Shown in pieces: positions 1 to 19,519 of a stretch of DNA of 57,661 bases. Each line of letters opens with the position of its first letter. Position 1 is the first letter of the stretch. A model generated the notes under the pieces. It did not search any database. It was not told the DNA's origin and worked only from the letters and a program-made list of their open reading frames with translations. Origin of the DNA: an uncultured Candidatus Saccharibacteria bacterium (GTDB lineage Bacteria > Patescibacteriota > Minisyncoccia > Minisyncoccales > GWA2-38-27); assembly GCA_964493085.1 (NCBI GenBank), contig CAZBLV010000006.1:1-57661 (forward strand). The letters run 5' to 3'. The position numbers were made by a program, and so were the translations under genes.

Positions 1-3000
1 CCCAAGAATATGTGGTGTTATAATCTAAGTCGAAAATCTCCTTACTGTTATTAGTTTGCCCTGAATATATGACGCCGTTTATATCGATCTCATATTCTGT
101 TTGAGGGTCATATCCAAGAGGATCGTTGTCTTCGTCGACATAAGTCCAGCTTAATTCTACGGCCGGATTTTCCTCGCATCCGTCTGTCTGCTGCGGCTCT
201 TCGGGGTTTGCTTCCGGGGGTTTATTGCCAGATAAAACCTCAATAGTTGCTGTATCTTCTGCCGAAAGAGTAATGTCAGGATTAACGATCTTTTCTACTA
301 TTACTTTGGCGGTGTAAGTGCCGGAGTCAGGATAGTTGCAGGCGTCGATTCCTTTTACTTCCTTTGGATTGTCATCATCGTCGTTGAAAACTTTTGGGTT
401 GTCATCATCTTCTCGGCAGTAAAAAGTATAATTAAAAGGTTCCGTGACATCTCCTGAAACAGTTGCCTGAAGGTCAATGTCCAATGGAGCCGAGCCTTCG
501 TAATTGTCTTGCCAATCTTCTGTTTCGGCTTTTCTCACCTTCAAATCAACTGACAGCTCCGGGATCCCTATATCAACATAATATATGTCAGTCGAGGTAG
601 AAGAAACGGGATCTACTGGCTTTAAAGGCATATGAAGATAAAGGCAGGGAACATTCCTGTAGCACCAGCAACCTTCATATTGGGGGTCGTCAGGATCTAA
701 AATGAGGTTTGGGAAAAACATATCTTCTGGGCATCCCGGAGGAGAGCCGGAACTTTCATCTTTTTGGCACCACTTAAGCATAGGCGCTGATTCTGAAAAA
801 ACTCCTTTTTCGAAATAAGCAAAGCAGTCAAAGGTATTTTCAATTTTTATCTGGCCCTCTTCTTCACTGACCGGCTGACAGCTTATTTCCATTTTCTCTT
901 TCAAGGCCTGATTAGGCCCATTAATACTGCAAGGGTTGTCCTCCGTAGCAGTACAAGAATTAATAACGTCATCTTCCTCGTCCACTCTTTTTATTTCGCA
1001 AGACAGCTTTTCAACGCTTAAATCTATCTTTCTATGGCAATTGACTTGAGTTCCTACGCAGGCGCTTTTAGGGTCAGAACCGATATTCGTGAAATTGCTG
1101 TAAGGGAAAAGATAGGTTGCCAATCCAGATTCGTCTTCATAAGAACCGTGGTCACTGCAGAAGTTCTCAATTCCCTCAGCATCCAGATCATCAAACTCGT
1201 TATAATAACTGGATAAATCATCCCAATCATAGGGACAGCTCTCTTCCAAAACTTGCTCTGGATTCTGGCTACGGCATTTTGTGTTTGAATAATAGTAATC
1301 GTCAACCCAGTTTACAGAGCCGGTATACATCTGATTAGACGAAGTAAAAGCGCCCCCGGAGGACAGCGTGCCCTCAATTTCGCCGCCGATAGAGATGACG
1401 GTTGGTTCGTCTTCTTCTTCGGATAGAAGCAGGCCTTCTGATTTGATGGAATCGTAGCTGTTATAAGCTAACCAACCAAGGCCTAGCCCGAACAAATCCC
1501 AATCTTCACCCTGGCTGCAGTCATCGAGAGAGTCCCATTCGTTATAGAAAAAATCGCAACAGGGCTGTTCGCACGGGGTGGATGTAGGGAGACCGCAATT
1601 TGGTCCTGTTCTCGGGCATTGAAATTCAAGATCTGCCCCATAATAAGCTGAAGCCAGCAGAGGGAAGAATAGTAAAAAGAGCAAAAGGCCTGCTACCTTA
1701 AAGTTGTTTTTTCTTTTCATAAATTTTCTGTAAAAATAAACAATAATGCCGACTAAAATTAGCACAAGAAAACCGATACCAATCTTTTTCAACGGCAAGA
1801 CCGGCGCTATTTCTTCCTCTCTTGGAGTAAAGTTGTCAATATTGTATTCTGTTTCAATGCTGTCTACAAGATTTTCTTCCTTGTAAAGCTTTGAAACGAC
1901 AGTTAGCCGGTCAATGTTTTTTGAGGGCTTAAATTTCTTTTCCAGACCCATGGCAGCGGGAGTTATTCTCCCTTCGTACTCCATTTGGGCGATAACTTTG
2001 TCTTTTTCCTTTACTTCGACAACAATTTTTCCGTTAAAGTCGGTGAAAGCGGCGGTGTTGGAAAAACAGCTGAAGAGAGTAGTTTCTTCGCCTCTTTTCA
2101 AAGGAAACTTATCAAGACCGCTGAAGAGAAACCTTCCTCTTCCTTTTTCAACAGCAAATCTCACATTAAGCATTGTTTTCTGGCCTTCTCCTTCAACTAT
2201 GATTCTTGCGATATAGTTTCCCGGAGAAAGAGGAGGGATGGTGAATTCCAGCAGCTGATCTTCGCTCAAAGAGACTGATCTTTTCTCGTTGTAGTCTGCG
2301 AATTTTTCTTCTTTGTCGAGTAAGTCAAAGTAATAGACGCCAAAGGAAAGATCGGCTGTTCCTTGGTCCAAGGTGCTTTTTAGAGGCACAGAGAGAGAAA
2401 TCTCTTGGCCTTCTTCTATGCCAGCACCTCTAGCTGAAGAAACAGCTTTCTTGTTATTAACCGATATATTGTTCTTGTCCAGCCAAAATCCTTTGTCTGG
2501 GCCAGTTATTTCAAACGGCATTAGTTCCCCGAAAACCATAGGATTAAAGCTCAAGCCGCTTAAGCTAAACCGATGCGAAACAGAAAAAAAGAGAAGAGCT
2601 TTATATTTTCCGTTCATAGCATTTTCCGGCGGGTTCCAGTCAAAGCTTATTTTCTTTTTTTCTCCTGGCCAAAGGCCCACATCTTCAACTGCCACAAATT
2701 CGTCAACCAGAAAATCTGCGTTTGGGGTTTCAGGATCATCGCGGTAAATCTTGGCGAAAACCAAACCGTCAGCTACAGGGTAGCTGTTATTGTTCGCTAC
2801 GCCAAAGTTAAAAGAAAAAGCCGAGTCCTTTTTGCTGACGACAGCGTTTTTAAACTCTATGCTTCCGAAAGCGTAATGGTCAGAGCAATCAACTAAACTT
2901 CCCCGCTTGTCTTCAGTGAACAGGTTCTCCGGGACCAAAGCAGCGAAAGCATTCTTTGCAAGGCTGGCCAGGTTCGTTATTGGCTCCGGCATTTGAGCAA

Positions 3001-3640
3001 ATTGCCCAAAAACATTTTCAGGAAAGGAGGGGTCGGAAACAGAGGAGGGACATGACAATCCCGGTAGCCCGTTGGTTATGAATCCCCCGTCGTAGCCCAA
3101 CAAGAAGCACTCTTCTTCGCAACCGCAGGGGCCCGGCCCTAATATGCAGGCAGGGCAAGCAGGTTCCTGGCACAAATAGCGAGGATCACACGCAACAGTA
3201 AACAATGTAGGTCCGTCTTCGGGAGGATAGTCCTCTACTCTAGCTATACATGAGGCGGTACAGCAGTCTCCAATCACAAATGCACAACATCCTGGGACGG
3301 TTTCATAGACGCACTGCTCACAGGTTCTCTGTGTCCCTTGCATCGGACTGCCCCAATCCAAAGTACTCCCAGTATACTCATAGTTATCGTAATTCTCCAA
3401 TACATAACTTATTACCTCGCTCTTGAGGCCGGCGACAGAACATGTGCCATCCCCACACTCGTATATATAGTGATCAAACGGACTCGGCGTCTCCGAGAAA
3501 TCGGGACAGACCTCTTCCATAGAAGGTTCCGGGCCACAGTAAGAGGGCCATTCCCACCATGATCCTCGGACAGCCGCAGGTGAGGCTAAAGAAAACAAGG
3601 ATAAAATAATAATGCCAAAAAATAGTATCTTTTTTTCCAT
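1..3640 (-). CDS. Large Cys-rich secreted/surface protein, 3' end outside the window: signal peptide, Cys-rich region, Ig-like region, TM plus internal signal peptide, second Cys-rich region, PKD-like and FN3-like modules
   Basis: Hand translation from ATG 3640 (MEKKILFFGIIILSLFSLASPAA...) stays open to the window edge (...DLDYNTTYSW), at least 1213 codons. It is missing from the ORF track because no stop lies inside the window. An in-frame TAA sits 8 codons upstream of the ATG. PKD-like GSAPLDIDL...YTFYC...GTYTAKVIVE; FN3-like LSWTYVDEDNDP. Confidence 0.8.
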   Translation of the reverse strand, partial: MEKKILFFGIIILSLFSLASPAAVRGSWWEWPSYCGPEPSMEEVCPDFSETPSPFDHYIYECGDGTCSVAGLKSEVISYVLENYDNYEYTGSTLDWGSPMQGTQRTCEQCVYETVPGCCAFVIGDCCTASCIARVEDYPPEDGPTLFTVACDPRYLCQEPACPACILGPGPCGCEEECFLLGYDGGFITNGLPGLSCPSSVSDPSFPENVFGQFAQMPEPITNLASLAKNAFAALVPENLFTEDKRGSLVDCSDHYAFGSIEFKNAVVSKKDSAFSFNFGVANNNSYPVADGLVFAKIYRDDPETPNADFLVDEFVAVEDVGLWPGEKKKISFDWNPPENAMNGKYKALLFFSVSHRFSLSGLSFNPMVFGELMPFEITGPDKGFWLDKNNISVNNKKAVSSARGAGIEEGQEISLSVPLKSTLDQGTADLSFGVYYFDLLDKEEKFADYNEKRSVSLSEDQLLEFTIPPLSPGNYIARIIVEGEGQKTMLNVRFAVEKGRGRFLFSGLDKFPLKRGEETTLFSCFSNTAAFTDFNGKIVVEVKEKDKVIAQMEYEGRITPAAMGLEKKFKPSKNIDRLTVVSKLYKEENLVDSIETEYNIDNFTPREEEIAPVLPLKKIGIGFLVLILVGIIVYFYRKFMKRKNNFKVAGLLLFLLFFPLLASAYYGADLEFQCPRTGPNCGLPTSTPCEQPCCDFFYNEWDSLDDCSQGEDWDLFGLGLGWLAYNSYDSIKSEGLLLSEEEDEPTVISIGGEIEGTLSSGGAFTSSNQMYTGSVNWVDDYYYSNTKCRSQNPEQVLEESCPYDWDDLSSYYNEFDDLDAEGIENFCSDHGSYEDESGLATYLFPYSNFTNIGSDPKSACVGTQVNCHRKIDLSVEKLSCEIKRVDEEDDVINSCTATEDNPCSINGPNQALKEKMEISCQPVSEEEGQIKIENTFDCFAYFEKGVFSESAPMLKWCQKDESSGSPPGCPEDMFFPNLILDPDDPQYEGCWCYRNVPCLYLHMPLKPVDPVSSTSTDIYYVDIGIPELSVDLKVRKAETEDWQDNYEGSAPLDIDLQATVSGDVTEPFNYTFYCREDDDNPKVFNDDDDNPKEVKGIDACNYPDSGTYTAKVIVEKIVNPDITLSAEDTATIEVLSGNKPPEANPEEPQQTDGCEENPAVELSWTYVDEDNDPLGYDPQTEYEIDINGVIYSGQTNNSKEIFDLDYNTTYSW

Positions 3641-4021
3641 AAACTGTTTGGTTACTTTTTCTTAATCCATTTTATTATCTTGAAGCGAAAAAAGCAACTT
3701 CTTTAATTTTTCTGCGCGGGCTTTAAGACATAAACAAATCGCCAGCTTTGTCGGCGCAGGATCGGGAATCAGTAAAAGCAAAAATGAGGCAGGAGTTTCT
3801 TTCCTTCAGCTTGCCCAGGCCCATCTTGATTTCTGTCATGCGGAAAGCGCGATTGCTTGGCTTTATGTGACAAAGGATTGTTTTTTTCATCACATCAGTC
3901 TGTGCTGGCTTGATTTTTTTGTGATTAAGGGCTAGGATAGGCGTTGTCAAAAATCTTAATTGACGATCTCCAAACCATGAAGGCATGGTAAGGCCTTGGA
4001 CCTTGAAAAGGAGTTGGAAAA

Positions 4022-4219
4022 ATGAAGGACAAAGTCGACGTTAGAGAAGCTACGCACGTCAGAGTGAACGGCCGGGTAGAAAGGATTGTCTCTAAGTGGG
4101 GCATTGACAGCGATGGTCGTCTCGCGAAGCCGTCAGAGGGCGGATTCGGAGTTGTAACAGAAAGCGGCCTGCGCGTAAACATGTGGCAAGCGCATTCGTA
4201 CCTGCGCGAAGAGAATTAA
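4022..4219 (+). CDS. Small hypothetical protein (65 aa)
   Basis: AAGGAG Shine-Dalgarno upstream, protein-like composition, hairpin plus T-run downstream. Confidence 0.7.
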   Translation: MKDKVDVREATHVRVNGRVERIVSKWGIDSDGRLAKPSEGGFGVVTESGLRVNMWQAHSYLREEN

Positions 4220-4248
4220 AAGAAGCATTTTTGCACTACTAATCATGG

Positions 4249-4283
4249 GTCCCTTCGGAATTCAATCTGTGGGGACTTTTTTT
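4249..4283 (+). terminator. Intrinsic terminator after the 65-aa ORF
   Basis: GTCCCT...GGGGAC stem followed by T7. Confidence 0.6.
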
Positions 4284-4380
4284 AATCTCGTGAACAGATT
4301 TTTTGCCGACAGCCACCTCATTTTTTTAAGATTCCTCTAGCTTAAAACGGACTTCAAAAACAAAGTAAGAGGATTATAAA

Positions 4381-4405
4381 AAAAAGACGCATTTTTGCGC
4401 CTTTT
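4381..4405 (-). terminator. Probable terminator of the Gre-like gene
   Basis: Imperfect inverted repeat AAAAGACGCA/TGCGCCTTTT next to an A-tract (a U-run on the minus strand). Confidence 0.45.
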
Positions 4406-7081: not shown

Positions 7082-8062
7082 ATGAATTCAGAAGACATTA
7101 AAGAAATCTGCAAGCTCTATCCGGACTGGGCCGCAGAAACCATCAATGCGAGAAAAGCGGGGGGACAGACAAACAGGAACTGGATAGTAAAACATAAAGG
7201 AAAAAAGTTTTTTGTCCGCCTTCCCTGGCAAATGGCAGAAATTGTAGACAGAAATGTTGAGTCTAAGAATATTCTAGCCCTAACAAAGAATAAAAAAGCA
7301 TGTTGCATAACCCCTAAAGCCCATCTCTACATTATGAAAGGAAGAGATGTTCTGGGGAACTCTTCGGAAAAATACGATCTTCCGGACGGCACTATGGTCG
7401 CAGACTACATTGAAGGGAAAGATATAGACGGCAAAGATTTAGAGAGCCCCGGGATCCAGGACGCTTTAGTCGGAACTCTGCATAATTTTCACTCAAGCGG
7501 GGTGAGGTTTGTTAATGACTATGACGTCTTTAGAGACGAAGTGGAAAAATACAGAGAAAAAGCCCTGACTTATCCTGTTTCCGAATTAATAAGCAAAGAT
7601 AAGATTAACGGAATAAAAGAAGTAGAGGGACAAGCAAGAGACAATTTAGAGATTAAGGGAGGGGTTTCCACCCATAACGATCTCATCTTTGAGAACTTGA
7701 GATTAAGCAAAGAAGGAAAAGTTTTCCTCTTGGATTTTGAATATGCAGGATTTAACTTGAGAAACGGCCTTGTTTATGATCTAGGGATTATTTTTGGAGG
7801 AAATCTTTTTCAGAGCAACCCTATTAGTTTAGAAAGCTATAAACAGATTTTGAATAAAGCATCTTCTGTTTACGAGAAAGAATTTAGTTTACAGGAAGTC
7901 CTGTACGGGGCTTTGACTAATATTTTAGTAATGTTTTGGTGGGGTATTGTAAAATATTTTAATTCTGAAGAGGATAAAGACTATTTTAAAAACTACGTAT
8001 TGGTGAGGGGAGATAAAATATTAGAACTCTTTGAATCTATAAAAAAAGGGGGAGTTAGTTAA
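7082..8062 (+). CDS. Choline/ethanolamine kinase-like (APH-family) phosphotransferase
   Basis: GGQTNRN loop, Brenner motif HNDLIFEN, LLDFEYAG, YDLG. Confidence 0.85.
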   Translation: MNSEDIKEICKLYPDWAAETINARKAGGQTNRNWIVKHKGKKFFVRLPWQMAEIVDRNVESKNILALTKNKKACCITPKAHLYIMKGRDVLGNSSEKYDLPDGTMVADYIEGKDIDGKDLESPGIQDALVGTLHNFHSSGVRFVNDYDVFRDEVEKYREKALTYPVSELISKDKINGIKEVEGQARDNLEIKGGVSTHNDLIFENLRLSKEGKVFLLDFEYAGFNLRNGLVYDLGIIFGGNLFQSNPISLESYKQILNKASSVYEKEFSLQEVLYGALTNILVMFWWGIVKYFNSEEDKDYFKNYVLVRGDKILELFESIKKGGVS

Positions 8063-8814
8063 CTCCCCTTGTTGGCGAAATGCGAGATTACGTCAGCTAC
8101 TCCTCTGGCGTACGGGTACTGCGAGATGTGCCCTTGTTTTGCTTGAACGAGATTTTTACATTCTTTATTCGCGTTGAACGGACAACCGACAAACCCTACT
8201 TTTTCCAGGAAAGAAAGATCGCCGTTGGAATCTCCGATTCCCAGCATCCGGCTAGGACAGAGTCCGGACACTTCAGCTAGAAAGTCCAGGCCCGAGGCCT
8301 TGTTGATGTCGGGCGGAGCGATGTCTATTGCTACGTCAGAATGGCTTATCCTAACGAATCCCTTGTCAACCAGCTCTTTCAGCTCTCTTTTTACTTCCTT
8401 AAAGATGTCAGAGATTCTTGCCTCTGATCCGTGTTTTCTCTCAATGGCAATACAAACCATATTGCCTGGATAAAGAAAAAGATCCGGGTGCTTGCCAAGA
8501 ATCCCTTCCACTGCTTTCTTCACCTGATCCTCAAAGACCATTCTCCCTGCTTGGGTAAGCCGGGGGTTGATTCTTAAATCTTTGGTAGAGGGATTAAACA
8601 AGGCAATTCCGCTTTCAATTACAGACCAGAAGTCAGGCCATCCTAAGAAAGCGGCAACAGCTTCAACGTAATTGCGGTCTCTTCCCGTACAAAAAGCAGT
8701 AGGAAACCTTTTTGCAAAACAAGAAACTTCTTTCAACCCTTGATAATAGCCATCCGGAACCTCTCCCTTGTTAAGAGTCAAACATCCGTCCACATCGATC
8801 AGCAGCGCTTCCAT
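8059..8814 (-). CDS. HAD-superfamily (Cof/class IIB, phosphoglycolate-phosphatase-like) phosphatase
   Basis: DVDGCL motif I, CTGR, INKASGL, GDSNGD motif IV. Confidence 0.85.
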   Translation of the reverse strand: MEALLIDVDGCLTLNKGEVPDGYYQGLKEVSCFAKRFPTAFCTGRDRNYVEAVAAFLGWPDFWSVIESGIALFNPSTKDLRINPRLTQAGRMVFEDQVKKAVEGILGKHPDLFLYPGNMVCIAIERKHGSEARISDIFKEVKRELKELVDKGFVRISHSDVAIDIAPPDINKASGLDFLAEVSGLCPSRMLGIGDSNGDLSFLEKVGFVGCPFNANKECKNLVQAKQGHISQYPYARGVADVISHFANKGS

Positions 8815-8947
8815 GCAGTTCGCCCTTTCTTTTTTTGGGTTTTCAACGAACTTGCCTCTATCTCTATTCTACAATTTTTATTTAAAGACACAACCCTTTT
8901 ATTTAATTTAAACTGTATTATAATGATATTGTGTAAAAAACAAAGCC

Positions 8948-9541
8948 ATGAAGCAGAGAAAATCTATAATAGAAAGAAAAACAAAGGAAACAGATGTTAA
9001 AGTAAACTTAAGCCTGGACGGCAAAGGGAAAAGCGACATTAAAACTTCTATTCCTTTTTTGGACCACCTCTTGGATAATTTCAGCCGCCATGGCCTTTTT
9101 GATTTAGAGATTAAAGCCAAAGGAGATCTTGAAATAGATCAGCATCATACAGTAGAAGACATAGGCATCTGCCTGGGAGAGGCCTTTAAAAAAGCGCTTG
9201 GAGACAAAAGGGGGATTAACAGGGCCGGCTATTTTGTCTTTCCGCTTGACGAGTCCCTGGCCGTAGTTTCTCTGGACGTTTCCGGCCGCAGCTATTTGAA
9301 TTTTGACTGCAAGTTTAAAAGAAGCAAAATCGGAGACTTGGACTCTGATTTAGTTAAAGAGTTCTTTTGGGGATTTGTGCGCCATTTAAAAGCCACTTTG
9401 CATATTAAAGCCCTTTACGGGGAAAACGACCATCACAAGGCAGAAGCTATTTTTAAATCGTTCGGCAAAGCCATGAAAACAGCCTGCTCCAGAGACAAAA
9501 GGATCGGCAAAGATCTTCCCAGCACCAAAGGCATAATCTGA
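8948..9541 (+). CDS. hisB: Imidazoleglycerol-phosphate dehydratase
   Basis: ERKTKET, FLDHLL, IDQHHTVED, NDHHKAEAIFK, PSTKG. Confidence 0.97.
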   Translation: MKQRKSIIERKTKETDVKVNLSLDGKGKSDIKTSIPFLDHLLDNFSRHGLFDLEIKAKGDLEIDQHHTVEDIGICLGEAFKKALGDKRGINRAGYFVFPLDESLAVVSLDVSGRSYLNFDCKFKRSKIGDLDSDLVKEFFWGFVRHLKATLHIKALYGENDHHKAEAIFKSFGKAMKTACSRDKRIGKDLPSTKGII

Positions 9542-9546
9542 AACAA

Positions 9547-10338
9547 ATGATAAATCCAAAAAAGAGACTCCAAATAAAAAAAGCCGGACCCTTTTTCTTT
9601 GATAAAGGCAGCAAAACAGGGGTTCTTTTGCTTCACGGATTTACCAGCACCCCTTATCAGTTCCGGGAACTGGGGAAATATCTGGCAGAAAGAGGCCTTA
9701 CCGTTTACGCCCCTCTGGTGGCGGGCCACGGTACTTGTCCGGAGGATTTGAAGAACACCTGTGCTGAAGACTGGAAAAAATCCGTAGAAGAAGCTTATCG
9801 TTTTCTAAAAAGCAAAACAGAAAACATAGTTATAATAGGAAACTCTTTTGGAGGCAACCTTGCCTTTTATTTAGCCAGAAAAACAAACAATGATCCCAAA
9901 GCGATTATATCTTTGAGCGCTCCCATAAAATTAACATTCGGCTGGTTTATCAAATTAAGGCTTTATCTTTACGGCTGGATGAAAGAATACTATAGAAAGG
10001 CGACCAAAATATATCAAATCGACTATACCGACATGATAGACGAGGTTACTTATCCTTTAATTCCCATAAAAAGCCTAAGAGATTTCTTAAGCTTTGTCAA
10101 AGAAGAAACTATTCCCAATTTAAAAGAAGTGAAGGCTCCTATTTTGATTGTTTACGCCAGCAATGATCTTGTGGTAAGCCCCAAAAGCGCCCGCTTTATT
10201 TACGAAAACGTGAGATCTCTTAATAAAGAGATTTTCGAGCTTAAAACCAACCACCATGTAATATTGACTGACAAGAAAAAAGAGGAACTTTTTAAAAAAA
10301 CATATGACCTTATTAAAAAAGCGGCAAGTGCAGCTTAA
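9547..10338 (+). CDS. Alpha/beta-hydrolase carboxylesterase (monoacylglycerol lipase/lysophospholipase-like)
   Basis: LLHGFTSTP oxyanion motif, GNSFGG nucleophile elbow, catalytic Asp in NDLVV and His in NHHVI. Confidence 0.9.
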   Translation: MINPKKRLQIKKAGPFFFDKGSKTGVLLLHGFTSTPYQFRELGKYLAERGLTVYAPLVAGHGTCPEDLKNTCAEDWKKSVEEAYRFLKSKTENIVIIGNSFGGNLAFYLARKTNNDPKAIISLSAPIKLTFGWFIKLRLYLYGWMKEYYRKATKIYQIDYTDMIDEVTYPLIPIKSLRDFLSFVKEETIPNLKEVKAPILIVYASNDLVVSPKSARFIYENVRSLNKEIFELKTNHHVILTDKKKEELFKKTYDLIKKAASAA

Positions 10339-12091
10339 GGGAGAGTCTATTTTCATAAGAAAAACCCTACCTCAAATATTCTTTGAAACGGCATCAAGGC
10401 TTCCCAACAAAGAGGGCTTTTTTTACAAAGAGGGAGGTATTTACTATTCTCTAACCTTTAGGGAGGCGGAAGAAGAAGTAAAAAGCTTTGCTAAGGGAGT
10501 TCAGTTTCTTGGAATAAAAAAAGGGGATAAGATAGCTATTCTGTCAGAAAACAGGCCGGAGTGGGTTTTTACGGACTTAGGAACAATGCTGGCAGGAGGA
10601 GCGCTGGTTCCTCTGCACACAACCTTAAACCACAACGCAATAGCCAACCTTATCAATCATTCCGAGTCAAAATTGCTTGTTGTTTCCGGCAAGGAATTAT
10701 TGAATAAAATTCTTTTGGTTCAAGACCGGATTCCAGATTTAGAAAAGATCATTTATCTCGGCAGAACAGAAAACATTGACAAAAGAGAGCTCCAAAAAGA
10801 GATTATAGGGTGGAAGGAGTTTATCGAAGAATCAAAAGAAAAAGAGTTAAAAGAAGTTGAGACAAGTCCGGAAGAGGTTTGCACTATCATATATACTTCA
10901 GGGACCATGGGAGCGCCTAAGGGGGTGATGCTTTCCCATAATAACTTTCTGTCAAACGCCAGGGCCGTCACAGAAGTTGTCCCGATAACAGAAAAAGACA
11001 CCTTTTTGTCTTTTCTTCCCCTTTCTCATGTATTAGAGAGGCTGGCAGGATACTACGCCCCCCTGATGTTCGGGGCCACTATTGCCTACGCAGAAAGCAT
11101 CAATACTTTAGCTGAAAACCTCAAAGAGACCAAGCCCACTATTTTAATTTCCGTGCCCCGTGTTTTCGAGAAGTTCTACGACAAGGTTTGGGACAAAATA
11201 GAAGACTCTTCCAAGCTAAAAAGAGGAATGTTTTTGTGGGCATTAAAACAGAACGGCAAGGGGGTAAAGCCCGTTATCGCAGACAGGCTGGTCTTTAAGA
11301 AGATAAGAAAGAAAATGGGAGGCAACTTGAGGTTTGCCGTTTCCGGGGGAGCTTCTCTCAATAAAAGGATAGCCAAGTTTTTCCAGAAAGAAGTAGGCAT
11401 TAAGATCCTTGAAGGATACGGCCTTACAGAAACCTCTCCGGTAATTGCCGTTAATGGGCTAGAGGACATAAGGTTAGGCACAGTAGGAAGATCCCTTCCG
11501 GGAGTAGAAGTTAAGATATCTCCAGAAAAAGAGATTTTAGTAAAGGGCCCCAATGTCATGATGGGGTATTTTAAAAACCAAGAACTTACCCAAAGAGCTA
11601 TAGATTCTGAGGGGTGGTTCCACACAGAAGACCTCGGTTTTATTGACAAAGAGGGCTATCTCACTGTTACAGGAAGAAAAAAAGAATTGATTGTGACTTC
11701 GGGCGGCAAGAATGTATGGCCCGAAGAAGTAGAAAAAGAGCTAAACCACGACCCTTTTATATCCCAGTCCATGGCGCTGGGGCATAAGCAGAAGTTTATC
11801 TCAGCCCTTATTATTCCTGACTGGGAGGAGGTTAAAAAACACCTTTTGTCTCACAACTTGGCAGTTCATGACCCCGATGAGATGATTTTTCAAGAAGAAA
11901 TAATTCAATTGTTTAAAGAGCGCGTTAAAGAGGTTAACGATCATCTTTCTCATCATGAGCAAGTAAAGGATTTCAGGCTGGTAAGCAAAGAATTCAGCCA
12001 GGAAAAAGAAGAACTGACTCCTACTTTGAAACTAAGAAGGCATGTTGTCGAAGAACACCACAAGAAAGAGATAAAGAGCATTTATTCTTAG
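10304..12091 (+). CDS. fadD: Long-chain fatty acid-CoA ligase (AMP-dependent synthetase)
   Basis: IIYTSGTMGAPKGVMLSH, EGYGLTETSP, GRKKELIVTSGGKNV, ELTPTLKLRR. Start uncertain: ATG 10304 overlaps the esterase, GTG 10328 is possible. Confidence 0.93.
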   Translation: MTLLKKRQVQLKGESIFIRKTLPQIFFETASRLPNKEGFFYKEGGIYYSLTFREAEEEVKSFAKGVQFLGIKKGDKIAILSENRPEWVFTDLGTMLAGGALVPLHTTLNHNAIANLINHSESKLLVVSGKELLNKILLVQDRIPDLEKIIYLGRTENIDKRELQKEIIGWKEFIEESKEKELKEVETSPEEVCTIIYTSGTMGAPKGVMLSHNNFLSNARAVTEVVPITEKDTFLSFLPLSHVLERLAGYYAPLMFGATIAYAESINTLAENLKETKPTILISVPRVFEKFYDKVWDKIEDSSKLKRGMFLWALKQNGKGVKPVIADRLVFKKIRKKMGGNLRFAVSGGASLNKRIAKFFQKEVGIKILEGYGLTETSPVIAVNGLEDIRLGTVGRSLPGVEVKISPEKEILVKGPNVMMGYFKNQELTQRAIDSEGWFHTEDLGFIDKEGYLTVTGRKKELIVTSGGKNVWPEEVEKELNHDPFISQSMALGHKQKFISALIIPDWEEVKKHLLSHNLAVHDPDEMIFQEEIIQLFKERVKEVNDHLSHHEQVKDFRLVSKEFSQEKEELTPTLKLRRHVVEEHHKKEIKSIYS

Positions 12092-12101
12092 CATCAAAGA
12101 A

Positions 12102-13229
12102 ATGGAGCCTCTCGCTTCTAAAATTAGACCGAAAAACTTGAAAGAGTTTGTCGGCCAAAAACACTTAGTGGGCAAGGACAAGCCCCTTAACGTTGCTATT
12201 AAGAAAAAGCACTTGTTTTCTTTTCTTCTGTGGGGTCCTCCGGGATCCGGGAAAACCACTTTGGCTCAAATATATGCCAAAAGCCTTAGGGCTTTCCTTT
12301 ATGAACTGTCTGCCGTTTCAGCCGGGAAAAAAGACATCAAGGAAATACTGAAAGAAGATTCTCAAGGAGTTCCCAAAATACTGTTTTTAGATGAAATCCA
12401 TCGTTTTAACAAATCCCAGCAGGACTTTCTTCTTCCTTATGTTGAGAAAGGAGATATAACCCTTATCGGGGCGACAACGGAAAATCCCAGCTTCGAAGTA
12501 ATTCCTCCCCTGCTTTCCAGGTGCAGAGTTTTTGTTTTAAACGAGCTTTCTTCCAAAGAGATGAGAGCTATTATCAGGAGAACCGGATTCGAGCTTGATA
12601 AGGATTCCGAGGATTGGCTGATTAACATGGCCAACGGAGATGCCAGGCAGGCAATAACAATGCTGGAAAACACGGCCCGGCTTTACAAAAAAATCACAAT
12701 AAATAACTTAAAAAACACTCTTCAGTCAAAGTTTTTAAGATACGACAAAGCCGGAGAAGAGCACTACAACATTATCTCAGCCTTTATTAAAAGCATGAGA
12801 GCCAGCCAGGCCGATGCTGCTCTTTACTATCTGGCAAGAATGGTCGAATCCGGGGAGGATCCGAAGTTTATAGCGCGGAGAATGGTTATCTTTGCTTCAG
12901 AGGACATAGGCATGGCCCAACCCACAGCTTTGGTGGTTGCCAGCGAAGTCTTCAGGGCAGTAGAAACCGTGGGGCTGCCCGAGTGCGCCATTAATCTTGC
13001 TCACGGGACTGTTTATTTATGCCAGTGCAAGAAAGACAGGAGCTCTTACAACGCCTATTTTAAGGCCTTAAAAGATGCAAAAAAATACGGGAATCTTCCC
13101 GTGCCCTTGCATCTGCGCAATCCGGAAACAAAGCTTATGAGGGATCTGGATTATGGAAAGGGGTATAAGAAGTACTCTAAAAAGTCTTTTTTGCCGGAAA
13201 AACTAAAAGGAAAAAAGTATTTAGGATAA
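12102..13229 (+). CDS. rarA: Replication-associated recombination protein A (MgsA/RarA AAA+ ATPase)
   Basis: PLASKIRP, GPPGSGKTT, LDEIHRFNKSQQD, GATTENPSF, ISAFIKSMR, ASEDIG. Confidence 0.96.
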   Translation: MEPLASKIRPKNLKEFVGQKHLVGKDKPLNVAIKKKHLFSFLLWGPPGSGKTTLAQIYAKSLRAFLYELSAVSAGKKDIKEILKEDSQGVPKILFLDEIHRFNKSQQDFLLPYVEKGDITLIGATTENPSFEVIPPLLSRCRVFVLNELSSKEMRAIIRRTGFELDKDSEDWLINMANGDARQAITMLENTARLYKKITINNLKNTLQSKFLRYDKAGEEHYNIISAFIKSMRASQADAALYYLARMVESGEDPKFIARRMVIFASEDIGMAQPTALVVASEVFRAVETVGLPECAINLAHGTVYLCQCKKDRSSYNAYFKALKDAKKYGNLPVPLHLRNPETKLMRDLDYGKGYKKYSKKSFLPEKLKGKKYLG

Positions 13230-13253
13230 AAAAAACAGAGGCCTTGCCTCTAA

Positions 13254-13679
13254 TTAGTTTAATCCTAGCTCCTGGGCTACTTTGGGGTTAAGTTCTGTGG
13301 TAATTAGTTCTTTGATTTCTTCCGGGTTCACCCATTTTATCTCTGCTATCTTCTGGGTCTCTTTCGGTTCGGCAATGGGCTTTGAAGATTCTGTCTCGCA
13401 GAGATGGTAGGCTATCATTACCGGGAATTGAGAATGCTCCAGCACAAGGTCTATCTGGCGGCTTACTTTTATCTTGTATCCTGTTTCGCTTAACACGGTT
13501 CTTTCAACGCATTCTCCCCTTTCTTCTCCTGTGCACTGGGCGCCGCCGGGAAAAGACCATTTCAGGATTGCCTCGTTCTTTCCTTTTTCCGGATTTTTTC
13601 TCTTTATCATTAAAACCTGCCCTTTTTGGTTTAGAACTATCCCCAGGTTTATAAAATCTTTGTGTTCTTTTGCTGCCAT
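13254..13679 (-). CDS. NUDIX-family hydrolase with degenerate box
   Basis: WSFPGG...EERGECVERTVLSETG; IAEIKWV. Confidence 0.85.
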   Translation of the reverse strand: MAAKEHKDFINLGIVLNQKGQVLMIKRKNPEKGKNEAILKWSFPGGAQCTGEERGECVERTVLSETGYKIKVSRQIDLVLEHSQFPVMIAYHLCETESSKPIAEPKETQKIAEIKWVNPEEIKELITTELNPKVAQELGLN

Positions 13680-13790
13680 GCTTAGCTTAATCTAATATAA
13701 TAGCACATTCTTTATAGAAAAAACAAGCTTTTTAAGAATTTACGGCATTTTCTATTTTTCAAAACAAGAGAAAGTGGTAAGATAAAGAAA

Positions 13791-14408
13791 ATGGGATACT
13801 GGATAATTAAACTATTATTTGGACCGGTTATAAAATTAATTTGGGTTAGAAAAACAGAAGGACTGGAAAATCTCCCCAGAAGAGGAGCTTGCATAGTAGC
13901 GGCAAATCATTCAAGCTATTTTGATTTTATCTCCTTAGTGGCGGTCTTGCCCAGAAGAATTTGCTTTTTAGCAGCGGAAAAGTTTTACAAAAGTACTTTT
14001 TGGAGGCCTATAATGAGGCTAACAGGCCAGATTAAGGTGGAAAGAAGCGACAAAGACAAAACAGAAGTTTATCGCAAAGCAAGAGAAGCATTAAAAAAAG
14101 GGAGAGTAATAGGCATTTTTCCGGAGGGGACTAGATCTCCTTCCGGGGAAATTCAGAAAACGTATACCGGAGTGGCAAAATTCGCCCTGGAGAACAAAGT
14201 TCCCGTAATCCCCATAGGGATAAAAGGAACCTTCGAAATTATGTCTAGATATGACAAGTCTCCCAAACTTAAAAAAGAAATAGAGATAAATATAGGAAGG
14301 CCTCTTTTTTTCGAAGAATACCATAACAAAGAAAAGAACGAGGATGTTTACAGGCAGGTTACAGATATAGTAATGGGAGAAATAATGAAGCTTAGTGGGA
14401 AACAATGA
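13791..14408 (+). CDS. plsC: 1-acyl-sn-glycerol-3-phosphate acyltransferase
   Basis: NHSSYFD (HX4D), FPEGTRS, VPVIPIGI. Confidence 0.92.
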   Translation: MGYWIIKLLFGPVIKLIWVRKTEGLENLPRRGACIVAANHSSYFDFISLVAVLPRRICFLAAEKFYKSTFWRPIMRLTGQIKVERSDKDKTEVYRKAREALKKGRVIGIFPEGTRSPSGEIQKTYTGVAKFALENKVPVIPIGIKGTFEIMSRYDKSPKLKKEIEINIGRPLFFEEYHNKEKNEDVYRQVTDIVMGEIMKLSGKQ

Positions 14409-14411
14409 CTA

Positions 14412-15089
14412 ATGAAAAAAATTATTATTTTTGATCTAGATGGGACCCTTATTCGGGGTCAATCTCAGAAATTACTAGTTAAGTATGCCTACAGAAGGGG
14501 ATTAATTAATTTTTCGACGCTTTTTAAAATATTTTTATGGTTTTCTTTATATAAAATAGGGATCAAAAAAGATCCTCGGAAAATAATGGAATTTGGATAT
14601 TCTTTTTTAGCAAATAAGAGAATAGGTTACTTTGAAAAATTTTTTGATGATTTTTTCAAAAACGAATTAAGAAATTATATTTACAAAGAAGCCGTAGAAA
14701 TAATAAATGGGTACAAAGAAGAGAGCGTGGAAATGGTGATTGTTTCTAATAGCATAAAAGAGATTCTATCTCGAGTTGCAAGATTCTTTGCGATAGATAA
14801 CTATTTCGGCACTGAACTGGAAAAAAGGCATGGAAGATTTACTGGGAGAATAAAGAATGGCATAATTTATGGAAAGAACAAGTTAGAGTTGTTAGACGGA
14901 TTTATTGTGAATGAAGGCTTAAGTTTCAAAAATAGCATAGTGCTTTCAGACCATCATTCAGATAGATTTCTTTTAGAAAAGTCTTCTTGTCCAATTGCGG
15001 TTAATCCTACCTTAAAATTGAGAAAAATAGCTCAAAAATACAACTGGAAGATTCTAACATTTAAAGAAACCATTAAAAATGAATTTTAG
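14412..15089 (+). CDS. HAD-IB family hydrolase (SerB-like)
   Basis: FDLDGTL, VSNS, GRFTG, YGKNK, SDHHSD, AVNP. Confidence 0.88.
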   Translation: MKKIIIFDLDGTLIRGQSQKLLVKYAYRRGLINFSTLFKIFLWFSLYKIGIKKDPRKIMEFGYSFLANKRIGYFEKFFDDFFKNELRNYIYKEAVEIINGYKEESVEMVIVSNSIKEILSRVARFFAIDNYFGTELEKRHGRFTGRIKNGIIYGKNKLELLDGFIVNEGLSFKNSIVLSDHHSDRFLLEKSSCPIAVNPTLKLRKIAQKYNWKILTFKETIKNEF

Positions 15090-16692
15090 TTATTTTCAAA
15101 TATCCACTCTCATTACCGCTTTTGTAGGATTTTTCTTTGGGGTTTTGGTCTATTCAAGAGAGAAAAAATCAAAGACAAATTTATTTTGGCTTTTGACCTC
15201 AATCGCAATTAGTGCTTGGAGTATAGGCCTTTTTGGAGTAGTTTTCTCAGAAAAAAAAGAAAGCGCTTGGTTTTGGCAATACGTTTTAGATATCGGGGGA
15301 ATAGCGACTCCTATTCTATATTTTAATTTTGTTTTGTTCCTTATAAAAAAGAAGGCCTATAAGACAAGAGCTTTTTCTTTCTTAATAGGAGTGATTCTTG
15401 TTATTTTAAACTTTACAGATCTTTTTAAAAAAGGAGTTTCTTCTAAGTTCGGGCTAAATTATTGGATAGATCCCGGGCCGCTTTATTTTTTATTTCCTGC
15501 TTTTTTTATATTTTTTGTCATATCGACTACTTTCTATATTATAAAGAAGCATAAAAGAACTTCAGAGAAAATAGTAAAAAAACAGTTAGAATATTTATTA
15601 TTTGCGCAACTTTTTGGTTTTGGCGGAGGTTTCACCAATTTTTTCCCGCAACTCTTTAACGTATATCCTTTCGGGAACTATCTTGTTATTTTGTACGTTG
15701 TTTTTATAAGTTATGCTGCGGCGAAACACCACCTTTTCAACATAAGAGTTATAGTTACAGAATTATTAACTTTTGCTTTAATAGTTTTCCTTTTGGTTAA
15801 AACTGCTTTTTCTGAAACATATCAAGAGCTTATTATCAATGGTGGAATACTAGTAGGAGTCTTAATAGTCGGAGGGTTATTGGTTCGGAGCGTTTTAAGA
15901 GAAGTAAAACAAAGAGAAAAGGTAGAGCAAATGGCAAAAGCATTGCAGGAGGCTTACGAGGTAGAGAAGAAAGCCCACAAAGAGCTAGAAGGCCTAAGCG
16001 AAGCCAAAAACCAGTTTATTATGGCCACTCAACACCATTTAAGAACTCCTCTTACTTCAATGATAGGATATATTGACTTAATACTCTCTGGAACCTATGG
16101 AAAGGTTTCTCCTAAAATGAAGACAGCAATACTTAAATTGCAGACATCTACTAAAAGATTAATCAGGATAGTTAATGAAATATTGGATATTTCTCAGTTT
16201 CAGCTTGGCAAGCAGGTAGTAGACCTTCAGCCCGGTATTGATATGGAGGCAATAATAGACGAGATAGTGGAAGAATTGTCTTTTGAAGCGAAGTCCAAAG
16301 ACATTTATCTAAAGCTTAGAAAGCCAAAGAGGGGCCTTCCTAAAGTAAGGGCGGATGAAGAAAAGATTAAAGTTGCCCTTTTTAACCTAGTAGACAACGC
16401 CGTCAAATACACAACAGAAGGAGGCGTTACTTTGGAAATAAAGACAATAGACCATAGTCTAAGGGTCGTCACAAAAGACACTGGCATAGGAATAGCAGAA
16501 GAGAACCTCCCCAATCTTTTTGAGAAAATCTTTGAAAGAGGAGAAAAAGCTAAAGAAGTTTTCGCCACAGGCAAGGGCATAGGCCTCTTCATCTCAAGCA
16601 GAATAATTAAAGCCCACAACGGCAAAGTCTGGGCAGAATCAGAGGGTAAGGGAAAGGGAAGCACTTTCTTTGTAGAGCTGCCGATAAAATAA
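15079..16692 (+). CDS. Sensor histidine kinase with multi-TM (HisKA_7TM-like) input domain
   Basis: About 8-9 hydrophobic segments; H-box TQHHLRTPLT, N-box NLVDNAVKYT, DTGIGI, GKGIGL, GKGSTF. Confidence 0.92.
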   Translation: MNFSYFQISTLITAFVGFFFGVLVYSREKKSKTNLFWLLTSIAISAWSIGLFGVVFSEKKESAWFWQYVLDIGGIATPILYFNFVLFLIKKKAYKTRAFSFLIGVILVILNFTDLFKKGVSSKFGLNYWIDPGPLYFLFPAFFIFFVISTTFYIIKKHKRTSEKIVKKQLEYLLFAQLFGFGGGFTNFFPQLFNVYPFGNYLVILYVVFISYAAAKHHLFNIRVIVTELLTFALIVFLLVKTAFSETYQELIINGGILVGVLIVGGLLVRSVLREVKQREKVEQMAKALQEAYEVEKKAHKELEGLSEAKNQFIMATQHHLRTPLTSMIGYIDLILSGTYGKVSPKMKTAILKLQTSTKRLIRIVNEILDISQFQLGKQVVDLQPGIDMEAIIDEIVEELSFEAKSKDIYLKLRKPKRGLPKVRADEEKIKVALFNLVDNAVKYTTEGGVTLEIKTIDHSLRVVTKDTGIGIAEENLPNLFEKIFERGEKAKEVFATGKGIGLFISSRIIKAHNGKVWAESEGKGKGSTFFVELPIK

Positions 16693-16694
16693 TT

Positions 16695-17768
16695 ATGAAA
16701 AAGGAATTCCTAAAAGACTTAAAAGAATATACTCCCGGCAAGTCAGTGGAAGAAGTGGCGGAAGAATTAGGTTTGGATCCTGAAAAAGTAATTAAACTAG
16801 CCTCAAACGAGAATCCTTTAGGCCCCAGCCCTAAGGCAGAAAAAGCAGTCCTGGACAATATTGAAGACCTTGCTATTTTTCCAGACCCCTTGAGCATCAG
16901 AGAGTTAAAAGAAACAATCTCTAAGGAACTAGAAGTTCCTCAAAAGAATGTTGTTTTGTCTTCCGGGAGCGATGGAGTCTTTGACGTGCTTTCTAAGATA
17001 TTAATAGACAAGGGGCAGGAAGCCATTATTCCCTTGCCCACCTTTAGTATGTATGAGTTTGTAACCCGGGTGGCAGGAGGAAACCCTGTTTTTGTGAAAA
17101 GAGACAAAAACTTTAATTTGCCGTCCGAAGAGATAATATCCAGAGATAGCCAAAACACAAAACTTATTTTCATCTGCTCCCCCAACAACCCTACGGGAAA
17201 CCTTGAAAAAAAAGAAGATATAGAAAGAATATTAAAGGAAGTAGACAGCTATGTTCTAGTGGACGAAGCCTACATTGAATATGCAAAATCCGGTTCTTCC
17301 TGCTTAGACCTGTTTGGAAAATACAGCAATTTGATTATTACCCGCACTTTTTCCAAAGTTTACGGTTTAGCTAACTTGAGGTTGGGATTTGGAATTCTTC
17401 CCGACGAACTTGTTGCAGATTTCAACAAGGCAAACCTGCCCTTTTTCACCAGCTCTTTGGCAGTAAAAGCGGGAAAAGAAGCAATGGAAGACCAAGAGTA
17501 TACTAAAAAAGTGATTGAAACAAACAAACAGCAAAGAGAATATCTGACAAAAAACATTAAATTCAAGGTTTATCCTTCAGAAAGCAATTTTGTTTTAACA
17601 GACGTCAGCCCCAACAAGGCAGAAGAGGTAGTTTCTAAAATGAAGAATAAAGGGATTATTCTTAGAGACTGCTCTTCTTTCGGAGAAGGCATGGAAAGTT
17701 TCGTAAGAATCAGCGTGGGCTCCCCTGAACAGAACAAGAAACTGGTTGAAGAAATAAACAGGATTTGA
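16695..17768 (+). CDS. hisC: Histidinol-phosphate aminotransferase
   Basis: YTPGK, KLASNENPLG, CSPNNPTG, VDEAYIEY, RTFSKVYGLANLRLG (PLP lysine), VRISVG. Confidence 0.93.
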   Translation: MKKEFLKDLKEYTPGKSVEEVAEELGLDPEKVIKLASNENPLGPSPKAEKAVLDNIEDLAIFPDPLSIRELKETISKELEVPQKNVVLSSGSDGVFDVLSKILIDKGQEAIIPLPTFSMYEFVTRVAGGNPVFVKRDKNFNLPSEEIISRDSQNTKLIFICSPNNPTGNLEKKEDIERILKEVDSYVLVDEAYIEYAKSGSSCLDLFGKYSNLIITRTFSKVYGLANLRLGFGILPDELVADFNKANLPFFTSSLAVKAGKEAMEDQEYTKKVIETNKQQREYLTKNIKFKVYPSESNFVLTDVSPNKAEEVVSKMKNKGIILRDCSSFGEGMESFVRISVGSPEQNKKLVEEINRI

Positions 17769-17804
17769 TTTTTCTGTTTTAAAAGATATAATAGAACTAG
17801 ATTT

Positions 17805-18188
17805 ATGAATAAGAAAATATTTCTCATAGAAGACGAGCCTACAATTATAGACATATACCAGACTGCCCTAGGAGCAGAAGGCTTTAAGGTAGAATCTTGC
17901 AAGCTGGGAGAAGAAGCCTTGGGAAAGCTTAGAGGACTAGAAGAAAAAGATCTTCCGGATTTGCTGCTTTTAGACTTAGTTTTGCCAGACATTAACGGCA
18001 TAGAGGTTTTAAAGAAAATGAGAGAGGATGAAAAATTGAAAGATATCCCTGTTTTCATACTCACCAATTACACCAGCGATGAGATTAAAAAACAGGGCTA
18101 TAACTTGGAGGCCGAACAGTATATTACTAAAGCGGACTTTACTCCCAAGCAGATAGTGGAAAAAGTCAAGAAGAGATTAAAGGCTTGA
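17805..18188 (+). CDS. Single-domain response regulator (receiver)
   Basis: IEDE, LLLDLVLPDING, ILTN, YITK. Confidence 0.92.
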   Translation: MNKKIFLIEDEPTIIDIYQTALGAEGFKVESCKLGEEALGKLRGLEEKDLPDLLLLDLVLPDINGIEVLKKMREDEKLKDIPVFILTNYTSDEIKKQGYNLEAEQYITKADFTPKQIVEKVKKRLKA

Positions 18189-18212
18189 CAACCTCTCCTT
18201 TTTTGTTAAATT
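18185..18212 (+). promoter_or_regulatory. Sigma70-type promoter for nusA
   Basis: TTGACA-N16-TAAATT with TG extension. Confidence 0.6.
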
Positions 18213-18268
18213 AAACACAGCGATGAAAGTAATTGTCCGTTGGGAAACGGACATTTTTAATAAAAAAT

Positions 18269-19519
18269 ATGGACATTAAGAACTTTACTTCAGCAATGGC
18301 TCAAATCGCAGAAGAGAAAGGAATACCTGTAAATAAGGTAACAGAATGTATTGAAGCAGCTATTGCTGCAGCCTATAAAAAAGAATACGGAGAAAAAGGA
18401 CAGATAATCAGAGCAAAACTTGATCCGGTTACCGGCGATGTTAATTTTTGGCAGGTAAAGGAGATAGTTTCTGAAGACGCGATCTATACCGAAGAAGAAC
18501 TGGAAGAAATGAAAGAGAAGAAAAAAGAAAAAGAAGAAAGAAAGGTAAGATTTAATCCGGAAAGGCATATTCTTCTAAAAGAGGCGAAGAAGAACAACAA
18601 AAAGGCAAAAGCCGGAGAAGAAATTGAAACCCCCTTGGAAACCAAGACCCAATTCGGAAGGATTGCCGCCCAGACAGCAAAACAGGTTATTCTTCAGAAG
18701 ATAAGGGAGGAGGAGAGAAATACCATTTACTCTGAATACAAAGAAAAAGAAGGGGAGATAGTTTCAGGGGTTATCCAAAGAGTGGAAGCCCGCAATATTT
18801 TTGTGGATATTGGAAAAACCTTAGGCGTTCTTCCCAAAGAAGAAAGAGTTTATGGGGAGTTTTACAGGCCGGGCCAGAGACTGAAGTTTTATCTTTTAGA
18901 AGTGCAGGAAACCCCAAAAGGCCCTCTTGTTGTTCTTTCCCGGGCTTACCCCAAGCTTGTTTCTAAATTATTCGAACTGGAGGTGCCAGAAGTTGCCCAA
19001 GGAACAGTTGAGATAAAATCTATTGCCAGAGAGCCCGGCTCCAGAACCAAAATAGCGGTGGCAGCAAAAGAAGAAAACATAGACCCTATTGGCAGCGCAG
19101 TAGGACAAAGGGGGACCAGGGTAATGGCAGTTATTAACGAGCTTGGAGGAGAAAAGATCGATATTGTGGAATATTCGGACGATCCTGAAGAATATATCAG
19201 CAACGCCCTTTCTCCCGCCAAAATAGAAGAAGTTAAGATAAAACCCAAAAATACGGCTCTTTGCGTTGTCCCTGACGACCAGCTTTCTCTTGCTATCGGC
19301 AAAGAAGGGCAGAACGTAAGATTGGCAGCCCGCCTTACCGGATGGAAAATAGATATCAAGACTCCCGAGGGGGAGAAAATAAAAACAGCCGAGCCCGAAA
19401 AAGAAGAATCTTCTGAAATAATAGAAGAAGAAAAACCAGAGAAAGATTCTTCCCAAAAAAAGAAAACAGCAAAGAAAAAACAAACTACTAAAAAAGAGTC
19501 GTCTTCTGATAAGAAATAA
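18269..19519 (+). CDS. nusA: Transcription termination/antitermination factor NusA
   Basis: FGRIAAQTAKQVILQK, AREPGSRTK, GEKIDIV, LSLAIGKEGQNVRLAARLTGWKIDI; start placed at ATG 18269. Confidence 0.97.
   Translation: MDIKNFTSAMAQIAEEKGIPVNKVTECIEAAIAAAYKKEYGEKGQIIRAKLDPVTGDVNFWQVKEIVSEDAIYTEEELEEMKEKKKEKEERKVRFNPERHILLKEAKKNNKKAKAGEEIETPLETKTQFGRIAAQTAKQVILQKIREEERNTIYSEYKEKEGEIVSGVIQRVEARNIFVDIGKTLGVLPKEERVYGEFYRPGQRLKFYLLEVQETPKGPLVVLSRAYPKLVSKLFELEVPEVAQGTVEIKSIAREPGSRTKIAVAAKEENIDPIGSAVGQRGTRVMAVINELGGEKIDIVEYSDDPEEYISNALSPAKIEEVKIKPKNTALCVVPDDQLSLAIGKEGQNVRLAARLTGWKIDIKTPEGEKIKTAEPEKEESSEIIEEEKPEKDSSQKKKTAKKKQTTKKESSSDKK

Follow-up and report, generated by a model that had tools for sequence, protein, structure and literature searches.

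What does a bacterium that appears unable to make fatty acids do with a run of genes for lipid-modifying enzymes? The question is raised by contig CAZBLV010000006.1, a stretch of 57,661 nucleotides (nt) that was analysed over its whole length (hereafter, the window) and that is an entire contig of a 603-kb genome (completeness 98.1%, contamination 0.09%). A preliminary description of this DNA had joined four genes, for a serine esterase, an acyl-CoA ligase, a PlsC-family acyltransferase and a HAD-IB phosphatase, into one pathway that rebuilds membrane lipids from scavenged fatty acids. All four genes are real and intact, as judged by family matches and invariant catalytic residues; the bounds set in that description missed a fifth gene, encoding a HisKA_7TM histidine kinase, whose start overlaps the HAD stop by 11 nt. 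We propose, with a probability of roughly 0.55, that plsC, HAD and the 7TM kinase form a cassette that makes and senses a lipid signal, with the esterase and ligase supplying acyl-coenzyme A (acyl-CoA); the chemistry and the signalling are both deduced from gene content. The observations behind the preliminary description were partly confirmed, and its interpretation was partly supported.

The plsC gene (13791-14408, + strand; PF01553, E 1e-30; 205 aa) begins 1,699 nt past the ligase stop and ends 3 nt before the HAD gene (14412-15089, + strand; 225 aa), and the two are indeed a tight pair less than 2 kb downstream. The PlsC motifs H40-x4-D45 and FPEGTR are invariant in 9 orthologs, and the nearest solved structure is 5kym. 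On the curated AGP_acyltrn model TIGR00530 the protein scores 93.8 bits, below the cut-off of 102.95, and it is hence assigned to the PlsC family only. The HAD protein exceeds the cut-off of TIGR01490 (108.7 versus 98.3 bits), contains motifs I-IV, with D8, D10, S112, K157 and D184 invariant in orthologs, and has a predicted structure with a predicted local distance difference test score (pLDDT) of 93. No fused HAD-PlsC forms were found at E 1e-15 among longer proteins, which counts as weak evidence.

The kinase gene (15079-16692, + strand) divides into a sensor half (15079-15918, + strand; HisKA_7TM, residues 1-280) and a kinase half (15919-16692, + strand; HisKA and HATPase_c). Downstream lies a stand-alone receiver protein (17805-18188, + strand), the likely partner of the kinase; hisC (16695-17768) stands between the two in the window, and the receiver adjoins the kinase in the relatives G017 and G011 (G and L numbers are labels of genomes and loci). 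The predicted structure of the sensor (pLDDT 89) has a seven-helix fold like that of G-protein-coupled receptors (GPCRs; Z 17.1, root-mean-square deviation 3.8, 207 aligned), although a shared fold shows no function; among solved structures none matched the sensor by sequence, and Foldseek gave weak GPCR rows, the best at E 1.8e-3. G225 carries, downstream of the kinase, a repeat of its C-terminus that is 37 residues long and shares 97% identity with the window sequence (L098:3298-3408), and there a foreign gene precedes the receiver.

The two halves of the kinase differ in their relatives. Sensor and kinase halves of the window are 64 and 64% identical to those of G017 and 60 and 58% identical to those of G229, in both of which a HAD gene occupies the slot before the kinase; the corresponding values are 42 and 84% for the congener G002, with DUF362 in the slot, and 29 and 83% for the congener G001, with a methyltransferase. 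Sensor identities to other HAD cassettes are 64, 60 and 54%, and the kinase half is 83-85% identical to those of congeners and sister-genus relatives bearing other slot genes. By these comparisons the kinase is a mosaic whose ancestry switches near residue 280.

In a tree of 43 sensor sequences, from which the FeeM-linked kinase of G017 was left out, the six HAD-slot sensors group with an ultrafast bootstrap value of 91 (five of the six at 100), the six DUF362-slot sensors group at 100, and all 13 plsC-linked sensors group at a moderate 80. The slot label changes once on a 15-row sensor tree versus four times on a 13-row plsC tree. A HAD clade fails the approximately unbiased (AU) test in plsC (p 7e-83) as well as in the kinase half (p 1.6e-4; a quick tree of 20 chosen rows), as does the grouping of G000 with G002 in the sensor (p 1e-43). 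The plsC tree and the kinase half follow kinship, and the sensor half groups by the enzyme that precedes it, HAD or DUF362. The GC contents of HAD and the sensor half (0.295 and 0.317) are among the lowest of 460 open reading frames (ORFs), only 2 of which are at or below 0.30, and those of plsC (0.383) and the kinase half (0.404) are near the genome mean (0.411 +/- 0.037). Taken together, the identities, trees, AU tests and GC contents indicate that HAD or DUF362 is swapped jointly with the sensor, while plsC on one side and the kinase half on the other stay in place. Two marks of quorum-sensing pairs are found here, namely an enzyme gene adjoining a membrane kinase across lineages and a sensor that co-varies with HAD or DUF362.

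The PlsC clade of the window was found in 14 genomes (8/401 in one genome set). Its gene lies at most 2.2 kb upstream of a HisKA_7TM kinase in 11 of the 14 and 13-15 kb upstream in two, and G014 has no kinase match. The order plsC-HAD-kinase occurs in six genomes from at least three families (the window genome, G017, G229 with one extra gene, G234, G394 and G156), and plsC-DUF362-kinase in four (G002, G011, G225 and G386, the last with two extra genes); in G245 plsC stands immediately before the kinase, and in G013 and G228 a DUF362-kinase pair follows 13-15 kb downstream of plsC. A prediction set beforehand held, in that a kinase was found downstream at 4/4 newly found plsC loci in three other families. 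Among 36 further kinase regions, the slot before the kinase is often filled by a gene for a small-molecule enzyme: methyltransferases, UbiA, CqsA-like aminotransferases, FeeM/LuxI-like acyltransferases, acyl-reductase-like proteins accompanied by a further ligase, a CoaC/DFP/transglutaminase trio and proteins without an assignment. In several of the 36 the slot is cut off or no enzyme is evident. The trio, of CoaC-like flavoprotein, DFP-domain and transglutaminase-like proteins, stands in two genomes (L187:5189-8779 and L198:214-4654) and is possibly another enzyme cassette, and proteins of about 300-335 aa without a Pfam match that precede 7TM kinases (L204:5697-6689, L205:4914-5918, L217:5514-6521 and L200:5887-6777) are candidate undescribed enzymes.

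The other two genes form a module of their own. The esterase gene (9547-10338, + strand; PF12146, E 2e-20) encodes an Est30/monoacylglycerol-lipase-family serine esterase of 263 aa, in which a strong hydrophobic segment is absent and the nucleophile motif G-N-S100-F-G is joined by D207 and H237; S100, D207, H237 and the oxyanion motif H30-G31-F32 are invariant across 10 orthologs. Comparison with solved structures relates it to Est30, FphH and monoacylglycerol lipases (E 5e-36 to 1e-31), and nothing pointed to the lysophospholipase that had been suggested. The ligase gene (10304 or 10355 to 12091, + strand) encodes an AMP-forming, long-chain acyl-CoA-ligase-like enzyme that matches PF00501 (E 5e-82) and PF23562, both over the cut-off. 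Its AMP-binding loop, YGLTE motif and C-terminal lysine are intact, and the usual TGD motif is TED in the window and in G002. The best NCBIfam model is FadD11 (343 versus a cut-off of 950), and the acceptor could be CoA or acyl carrier protein (ACP), neither ACP nor CoaE having been found in the genome. The ligase may start at ATG 10304 (595 aa) or at ATA 10355, where three aligned relatives have ATG. The two genes are neighbours, as had been described, and their 35-nt overlap holds only with the start at 10304; the relatives' start position leaves a 16-nt gap after the esterase stop. The same letters stand at the ligase start in contigs of two runs, possibly the source of the window DNA. In this region (10304-10357) a purine-rich stretch lies just upstream of the ATA, and the window esterase is a few residues longer than those of relatives.

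Close homologs of this ligase occur in 7/39 genomes of the family and 4/201 of the order, and none was found in the congener G001 (96% complete), which is without the esterase-ligase pair. The esterase lies directly upstream in 11 of the 14 close-ligase loci found by ligase (the misses being G024, G235 and L111), and the ligase follows the esterase in 7/7 further loci found by esterase. The matches listed in the metagenome scan were mostly distant ligases and served only as a control; beside more distant ligases, such an esterase was found in 0/82 of the loci listed, many of them short. The esterase and ligase are a conserved but patchy pair, separate from the plsC-HAD module. G016 carries GpsA and hisC-like genes just upstream of the pair (L033:417-5171).

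The two modules are nevertheless associated. All four genes and the kinase are contiguous in one other genome (L077), in G017 the modules are 12.5 kb apart on the same strand, and the pair is present in 8 of the 14 plsC genomes. The close ligase occurs together with this PlsC clade in 5/7 ligase-positive family genomes, and the clade is found in 4/32 ligase-negative ones; a 7TM kinase is present in 18/19 close-ligase genomes versus 21/39 others, all of these counts ignoring kinship. The expected co-occurrence of the four genes in relatives was seen. In G305 the order is esterase-ligase-methyltransferase-FeeM/LuxI-like-kinase. From the co-occurrence and gene orders, the esterase-ligase pair is best read as an optional acyl-CoA supply common to several acyl-using cassettes.

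In the proposed scheme, the esterase, to judge from its family, would release fatty acids from acylglycerols or lysolipids that the cell takes up, and the ligase would form acyl-CoA with externally acquired CoA, since CoA synthesis was not found in the genome. PlsC would then acylate a phosphorylated acceptor, which may be glycerol-3-phosphate, dihydroxyacetone phosphate or a lyso-phospholipid, and HAD-IB would remove the phosphate to give a mono- or diacylglycerol-like product, as in the plant enzymes GPAT4/6/8. The seven-helix sensor would bind this product and hand phosphate to the receiver. A narrower version, which we regard as a doubtful conjecture, is signalling by monoacylglycerol made from host lipids: PlsC and HAD would make the acylglycerol, the GPCR-fold kinase would read it, the esterase would recycle it and end the signal, and swaps of HAD for DUF362 together with the sensor would create distinct dialects. 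As the acyl chain must come from the host, such a signal would report host identity or attachment.

Several observations weigh against a make-and-sense cassette. PlsC itself does not co-vary with the sensor type, and its link to the sensor consequently rests on position and on the moderately supported 13-member sensor group (80; 85/90). The stretch upstream of the kinase is insertion-prone, so that some cassette neighbours may be passengers, and HAD-IB relatives are also sited away from the kinase (G035 and G235). G013, G014 and G229 have this plsC and no AMP-binding match, which leaves their acyl source without explanation. The esterase-ligase pair can lie far from the kinase (about 94 kb in G025) or on other contigs (G225, G386 and G394), and G329 has the pair and no HisKA_7TM match. 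The acceptor is also without explanation, as a convincing GpsA was found in 0/5 and GDPD in 1/5 of the HAD-cassette genomes tested. A diacylglycerol product would not diffuse between cells, the usual start codon of the window ligase is altered, and kin are not independent in the genome counts.

The alternative that survives best, though we consider it unlikely, is regulated membrane remodelling, in which these enzymes work within the membrane of the cell itself, re-acylating and dephosphorylating lysolipids that it has scavenged, the kinase keeps watch on that lipid inside the same cell, and nothing is released. In systems already known, membrane lipids are the substrates of PlsC and HAD-IB, lysolipids are enriched in fractions rich in Candidate Phyla Radiation (CPR) bacteria according to PMC7242380, and elsewhere the genome has another PlsC-family gene along with genes for a DgkA/UdpK-family kinase, a PAP2 phosphatase, a PgsA-like enzyme and GDPD. 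Co-variation of a sensor with a tailoring enzyme would follow here too. However, small-molecule enzymes of unrelated kinds, LuxI/FeeM-like and CqsA-like ones among them, also occupy the slot, and congeners differ in both slot and sensor; such repeated swaps would be odd for membrane homeostasis.

The pathway first suggested, in which the four genes build bulk membrane from scavenged fatty acids next to an unrelated kinase, survives less well. Its premise of no fatty-acid synthesis holds. A Pfam scan of 659 of the 696 called ORFs (leaving out 15 ORFs <65 aa and 22 window ORFs, which were read by eye) found no fab, acc, ACP, AcpS, PlsX, PlsY, CdsA, GpsA, GlpK or DegV families and none for CoA synthesis or beta-oxidation. 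Six-frame genome searches with positive controls did not find ketosynthase, FabH, ACP, PlsX, GpsA, CoaE, PlsY or CdsA, and the ACP domain PF00550 has no match in the genome, so that type II fatty acid synthesis and ACP were both not found. A single FabG-like SDR is sited inside a glycolysis cluster. Also in favour of salvage, the four genes are contiguous in L077 and within 13 kb in G017, the ligase and this plsC co-occur (5/7 versus 4/32), and ligase-ACP-PlsC fusions accompanied by AcpS are encoded in further families of the order. The same searches leave nothing to begin or complete a phospholipid: among PlsX, PlsY, GpsA and CdsA none was found, PlsY was found in 0/49 genomes and CdsA in 2/49, this genome not among them, and the set expected of a de novo pathway, GpsA with PlsB or PlsX/PlsY and CdsA, was not found in a genome that is 98.1% complete. 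By these searches the window genome has no known route to de novo glycerol-3-phosphate, the PlsY step or CDP-diacylglycerol. Every cell needs a membrane, yet the close ligase (7/39 and 4/201) and this plsC (8/401) are patchy, and HAD and the sensor half move as a single unit. The individual steps of release, activation, acylation and dephosphorylation are plausible, but membrane building by that route and a single four-gene membrane system are not borne out, with plsC-HAD tied to the 7TM kinase and the PlsC clade present in three genomes without an AMP-binding enzyme. Bulk salvage is therefore unlikely to be the main role of these genes.

A PgsA-like CDP-alcohol phosphatidyltransferase, the one enzyme found among the four (with PlsY, PlsX and CdsA) that had been listed for checking, is encoded on contig C14 (L072:17747-18337); with no CdsA in the genome, its CDP-lipid source is without explanation. 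A PgsA-like enzyme is also present in 4/5 HAD-cassette genomes. The ligase-ACP-PlsC fusions (819-855 aa; PF00501, PF00550 and PF01553), each with an adjacent AcpS, occur in four genomes from three other families of the order (L087:3805-6698, L088:8673-11491, L089:1987-4796 and L090:8206-11024), and L090 also bears a ketosynthase at 17197-18447. These fusions are a closer match to Aas and are better candidates for true lipid salvage than the window genes.

It is very improbable that there is no joint system and that HAD-IB is the histidinol-phosphatase of a partial his pathway, with the other genes gathered in an insertion hotspot, since its 102 bits on the histidinol-phosphatase model NF052360 are far below the cut-off of 280, hisB was not found in 4/4 other plsC-HAD-kinase genomes tested (90-95% complete where stated) and the plsC-HAD-kinase order recurs in six genomes of at least three families, even though HAD-IB does lie between hisB and hisC, with hisD on another contig, and the stretch upstream of the kinase varies widely. 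HAD was accordingly rejected as a histidinol-phosphatase. The his genes present are hisB (8948-9541), hisC and hisD (L067:11077-12261); the Pfam scan turned up none of the early ones, and two HisRS-like genes exist.

Other neighbours lie outside the proposed cassette and its acyl supply. The choline-kinase-family gene upstream (7082-8062; PF01633, E 1e-9) is present as described, with a HAD-II gene (- strand) and hisB between it and the esterase, but its part in the pathway was rejected. These three genes are a conserved trio in G002, G001 and G220 (window 7082-9541; L031, L211 and L188), kept in G001 and G220, which both lack the close ligase and this plsC; G001 is without the esterase-ligase pair yet retains the trio, which places the choline kinase outside the system. 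Between the two modules lie rarA (12102-13229, + strand) and a NUDIX gene (13254-13679, - strand), separated by a terminator-like hairpin (13236-13252); neither gene is part of the system, and L077 has neither of them between its modules. Counts from scans for promoters and terminators were at chance level (20 versus 18.4 +/- 4.3 and 11 versus 10.0 +/- 3.1), and operon borders are thus unsupported. Positions 1-4400 contain no ORF >124 aa and no Pfam match, and possibly hold RNA genes or degraded DNA. Named protein homologs of window genes come from Nealsonbacteria, Staskawiczbacteria and Parcubacteria, which supports a placement in the Patescibacteria, the class being inferred.

These results change how the scattered lipid genes of Patescibacteria should be read, in that this PlsC clade and HAD, if no others, resemble components of a signalling cassette more than remnants of membrane synthesis. 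If the proposed cassette is real, it would offer a ligand candidate for the HisKA_7TM domain and a small system, of two soluble enzymes, one receptor and natural allelic variants, for the study of communication or host sensing in uncultured symbionts.

Several known systems resemble parts of this locus. The window esterase is like Est30, FphH and a Bacillus monoacylglycerol lipase (PDB 8hea, 8ftp and 3rli) over its whole length and shares their triad and oxyanion motif; it differs in belonging to a Patescibacteria clade, in the Asn before the catalytic Ser and in its pairing with a ligase, and its substrate is a prediction. Probst 2020 (PMC7242380) reports that fractions rich in CPR contain lysolipids, that the CPR genomes covered there have no enzymes producing or requiring ACP, and that Nealsonbacteria have PlsC and PlsY and neither PlsX nor ACP machinery. 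In Minisyncoccus there is a long-chain acyl-CoA synthetase whose role is unclear (PMC12281837), and Vampirococcus has a secreted phospholipase (PMC8080830). Salvage by E. coli Aas/LplT, by Chlamydia CT775/CT776 and by the Nealsonbacteria PlsC/PlsY (PMC7242380) combines a ligase with a PlsC-family acyltransferase in a host-dependent organism, as in the window; in contrast to these, the window genome is without ACP and PlsY, and its genes are patchy and coupled to a sensor kinase. Unlike in Aas-type lysolipid salvage, the ligase and the acyltransferase are separate genes, with no PF00550 match. In plant GPAT4/6/8 (PMC11127019), an acyltransferase with an active phosphatase domain makes monoacylglycerol from glycerol-3-phosphate, much as we predict for PlsC and HAD; the plant enzyme is one eukaryotic polypeptide serving cutin and suberin, whereas the window has two bacterial genes, the likeness being one of reaction logic. 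In the literature searched, HisKA_7TM is named in only two papers, one of them PMC5847659. Neither an esterase-ligase pair nor a PlsC-HAD/DUF362-7TM kinase cassette was found described in that literature, which does not take in most subscription journals.

In staphylococcal agr, CqsA/CqsS and PhcB/PhcS, the signal-making gene and the sensor domain of the receptor vary together between conserved flanks. Those systems use other enzymes and another sensor family and were shown experimentally, whereas the window cassette is a prediction and has a stand-alone receiver as partner. A close parallel comes from Bernard et al. 2020 (PMC7567580), who described putative signal synthase genes before histidine kinases in CPR genomes (51 CqsA, 18 LuxI and 3 PpyS); there, too, the synthase gene stands directly before a membrane histidine kinase in Patescibacteria. 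PlsC-family (HdtS) homologs were found three genes from LuxI in at least 2 LuxI neighbourhoods, and the available text gives no count of HdtS adjacency, does not use the term 7TM and describes no exchange of sensor halves. The window has neither LuxI nor CqsA, and its enzymes are PlsC plus HAD-IB or, in relatives, DUF362. Compared with the predicted CPR synthase-receptor cassettes, what is new here is the use of glycerolipid-type enzymes and the allele-like swapping of enzyme and sensor together.

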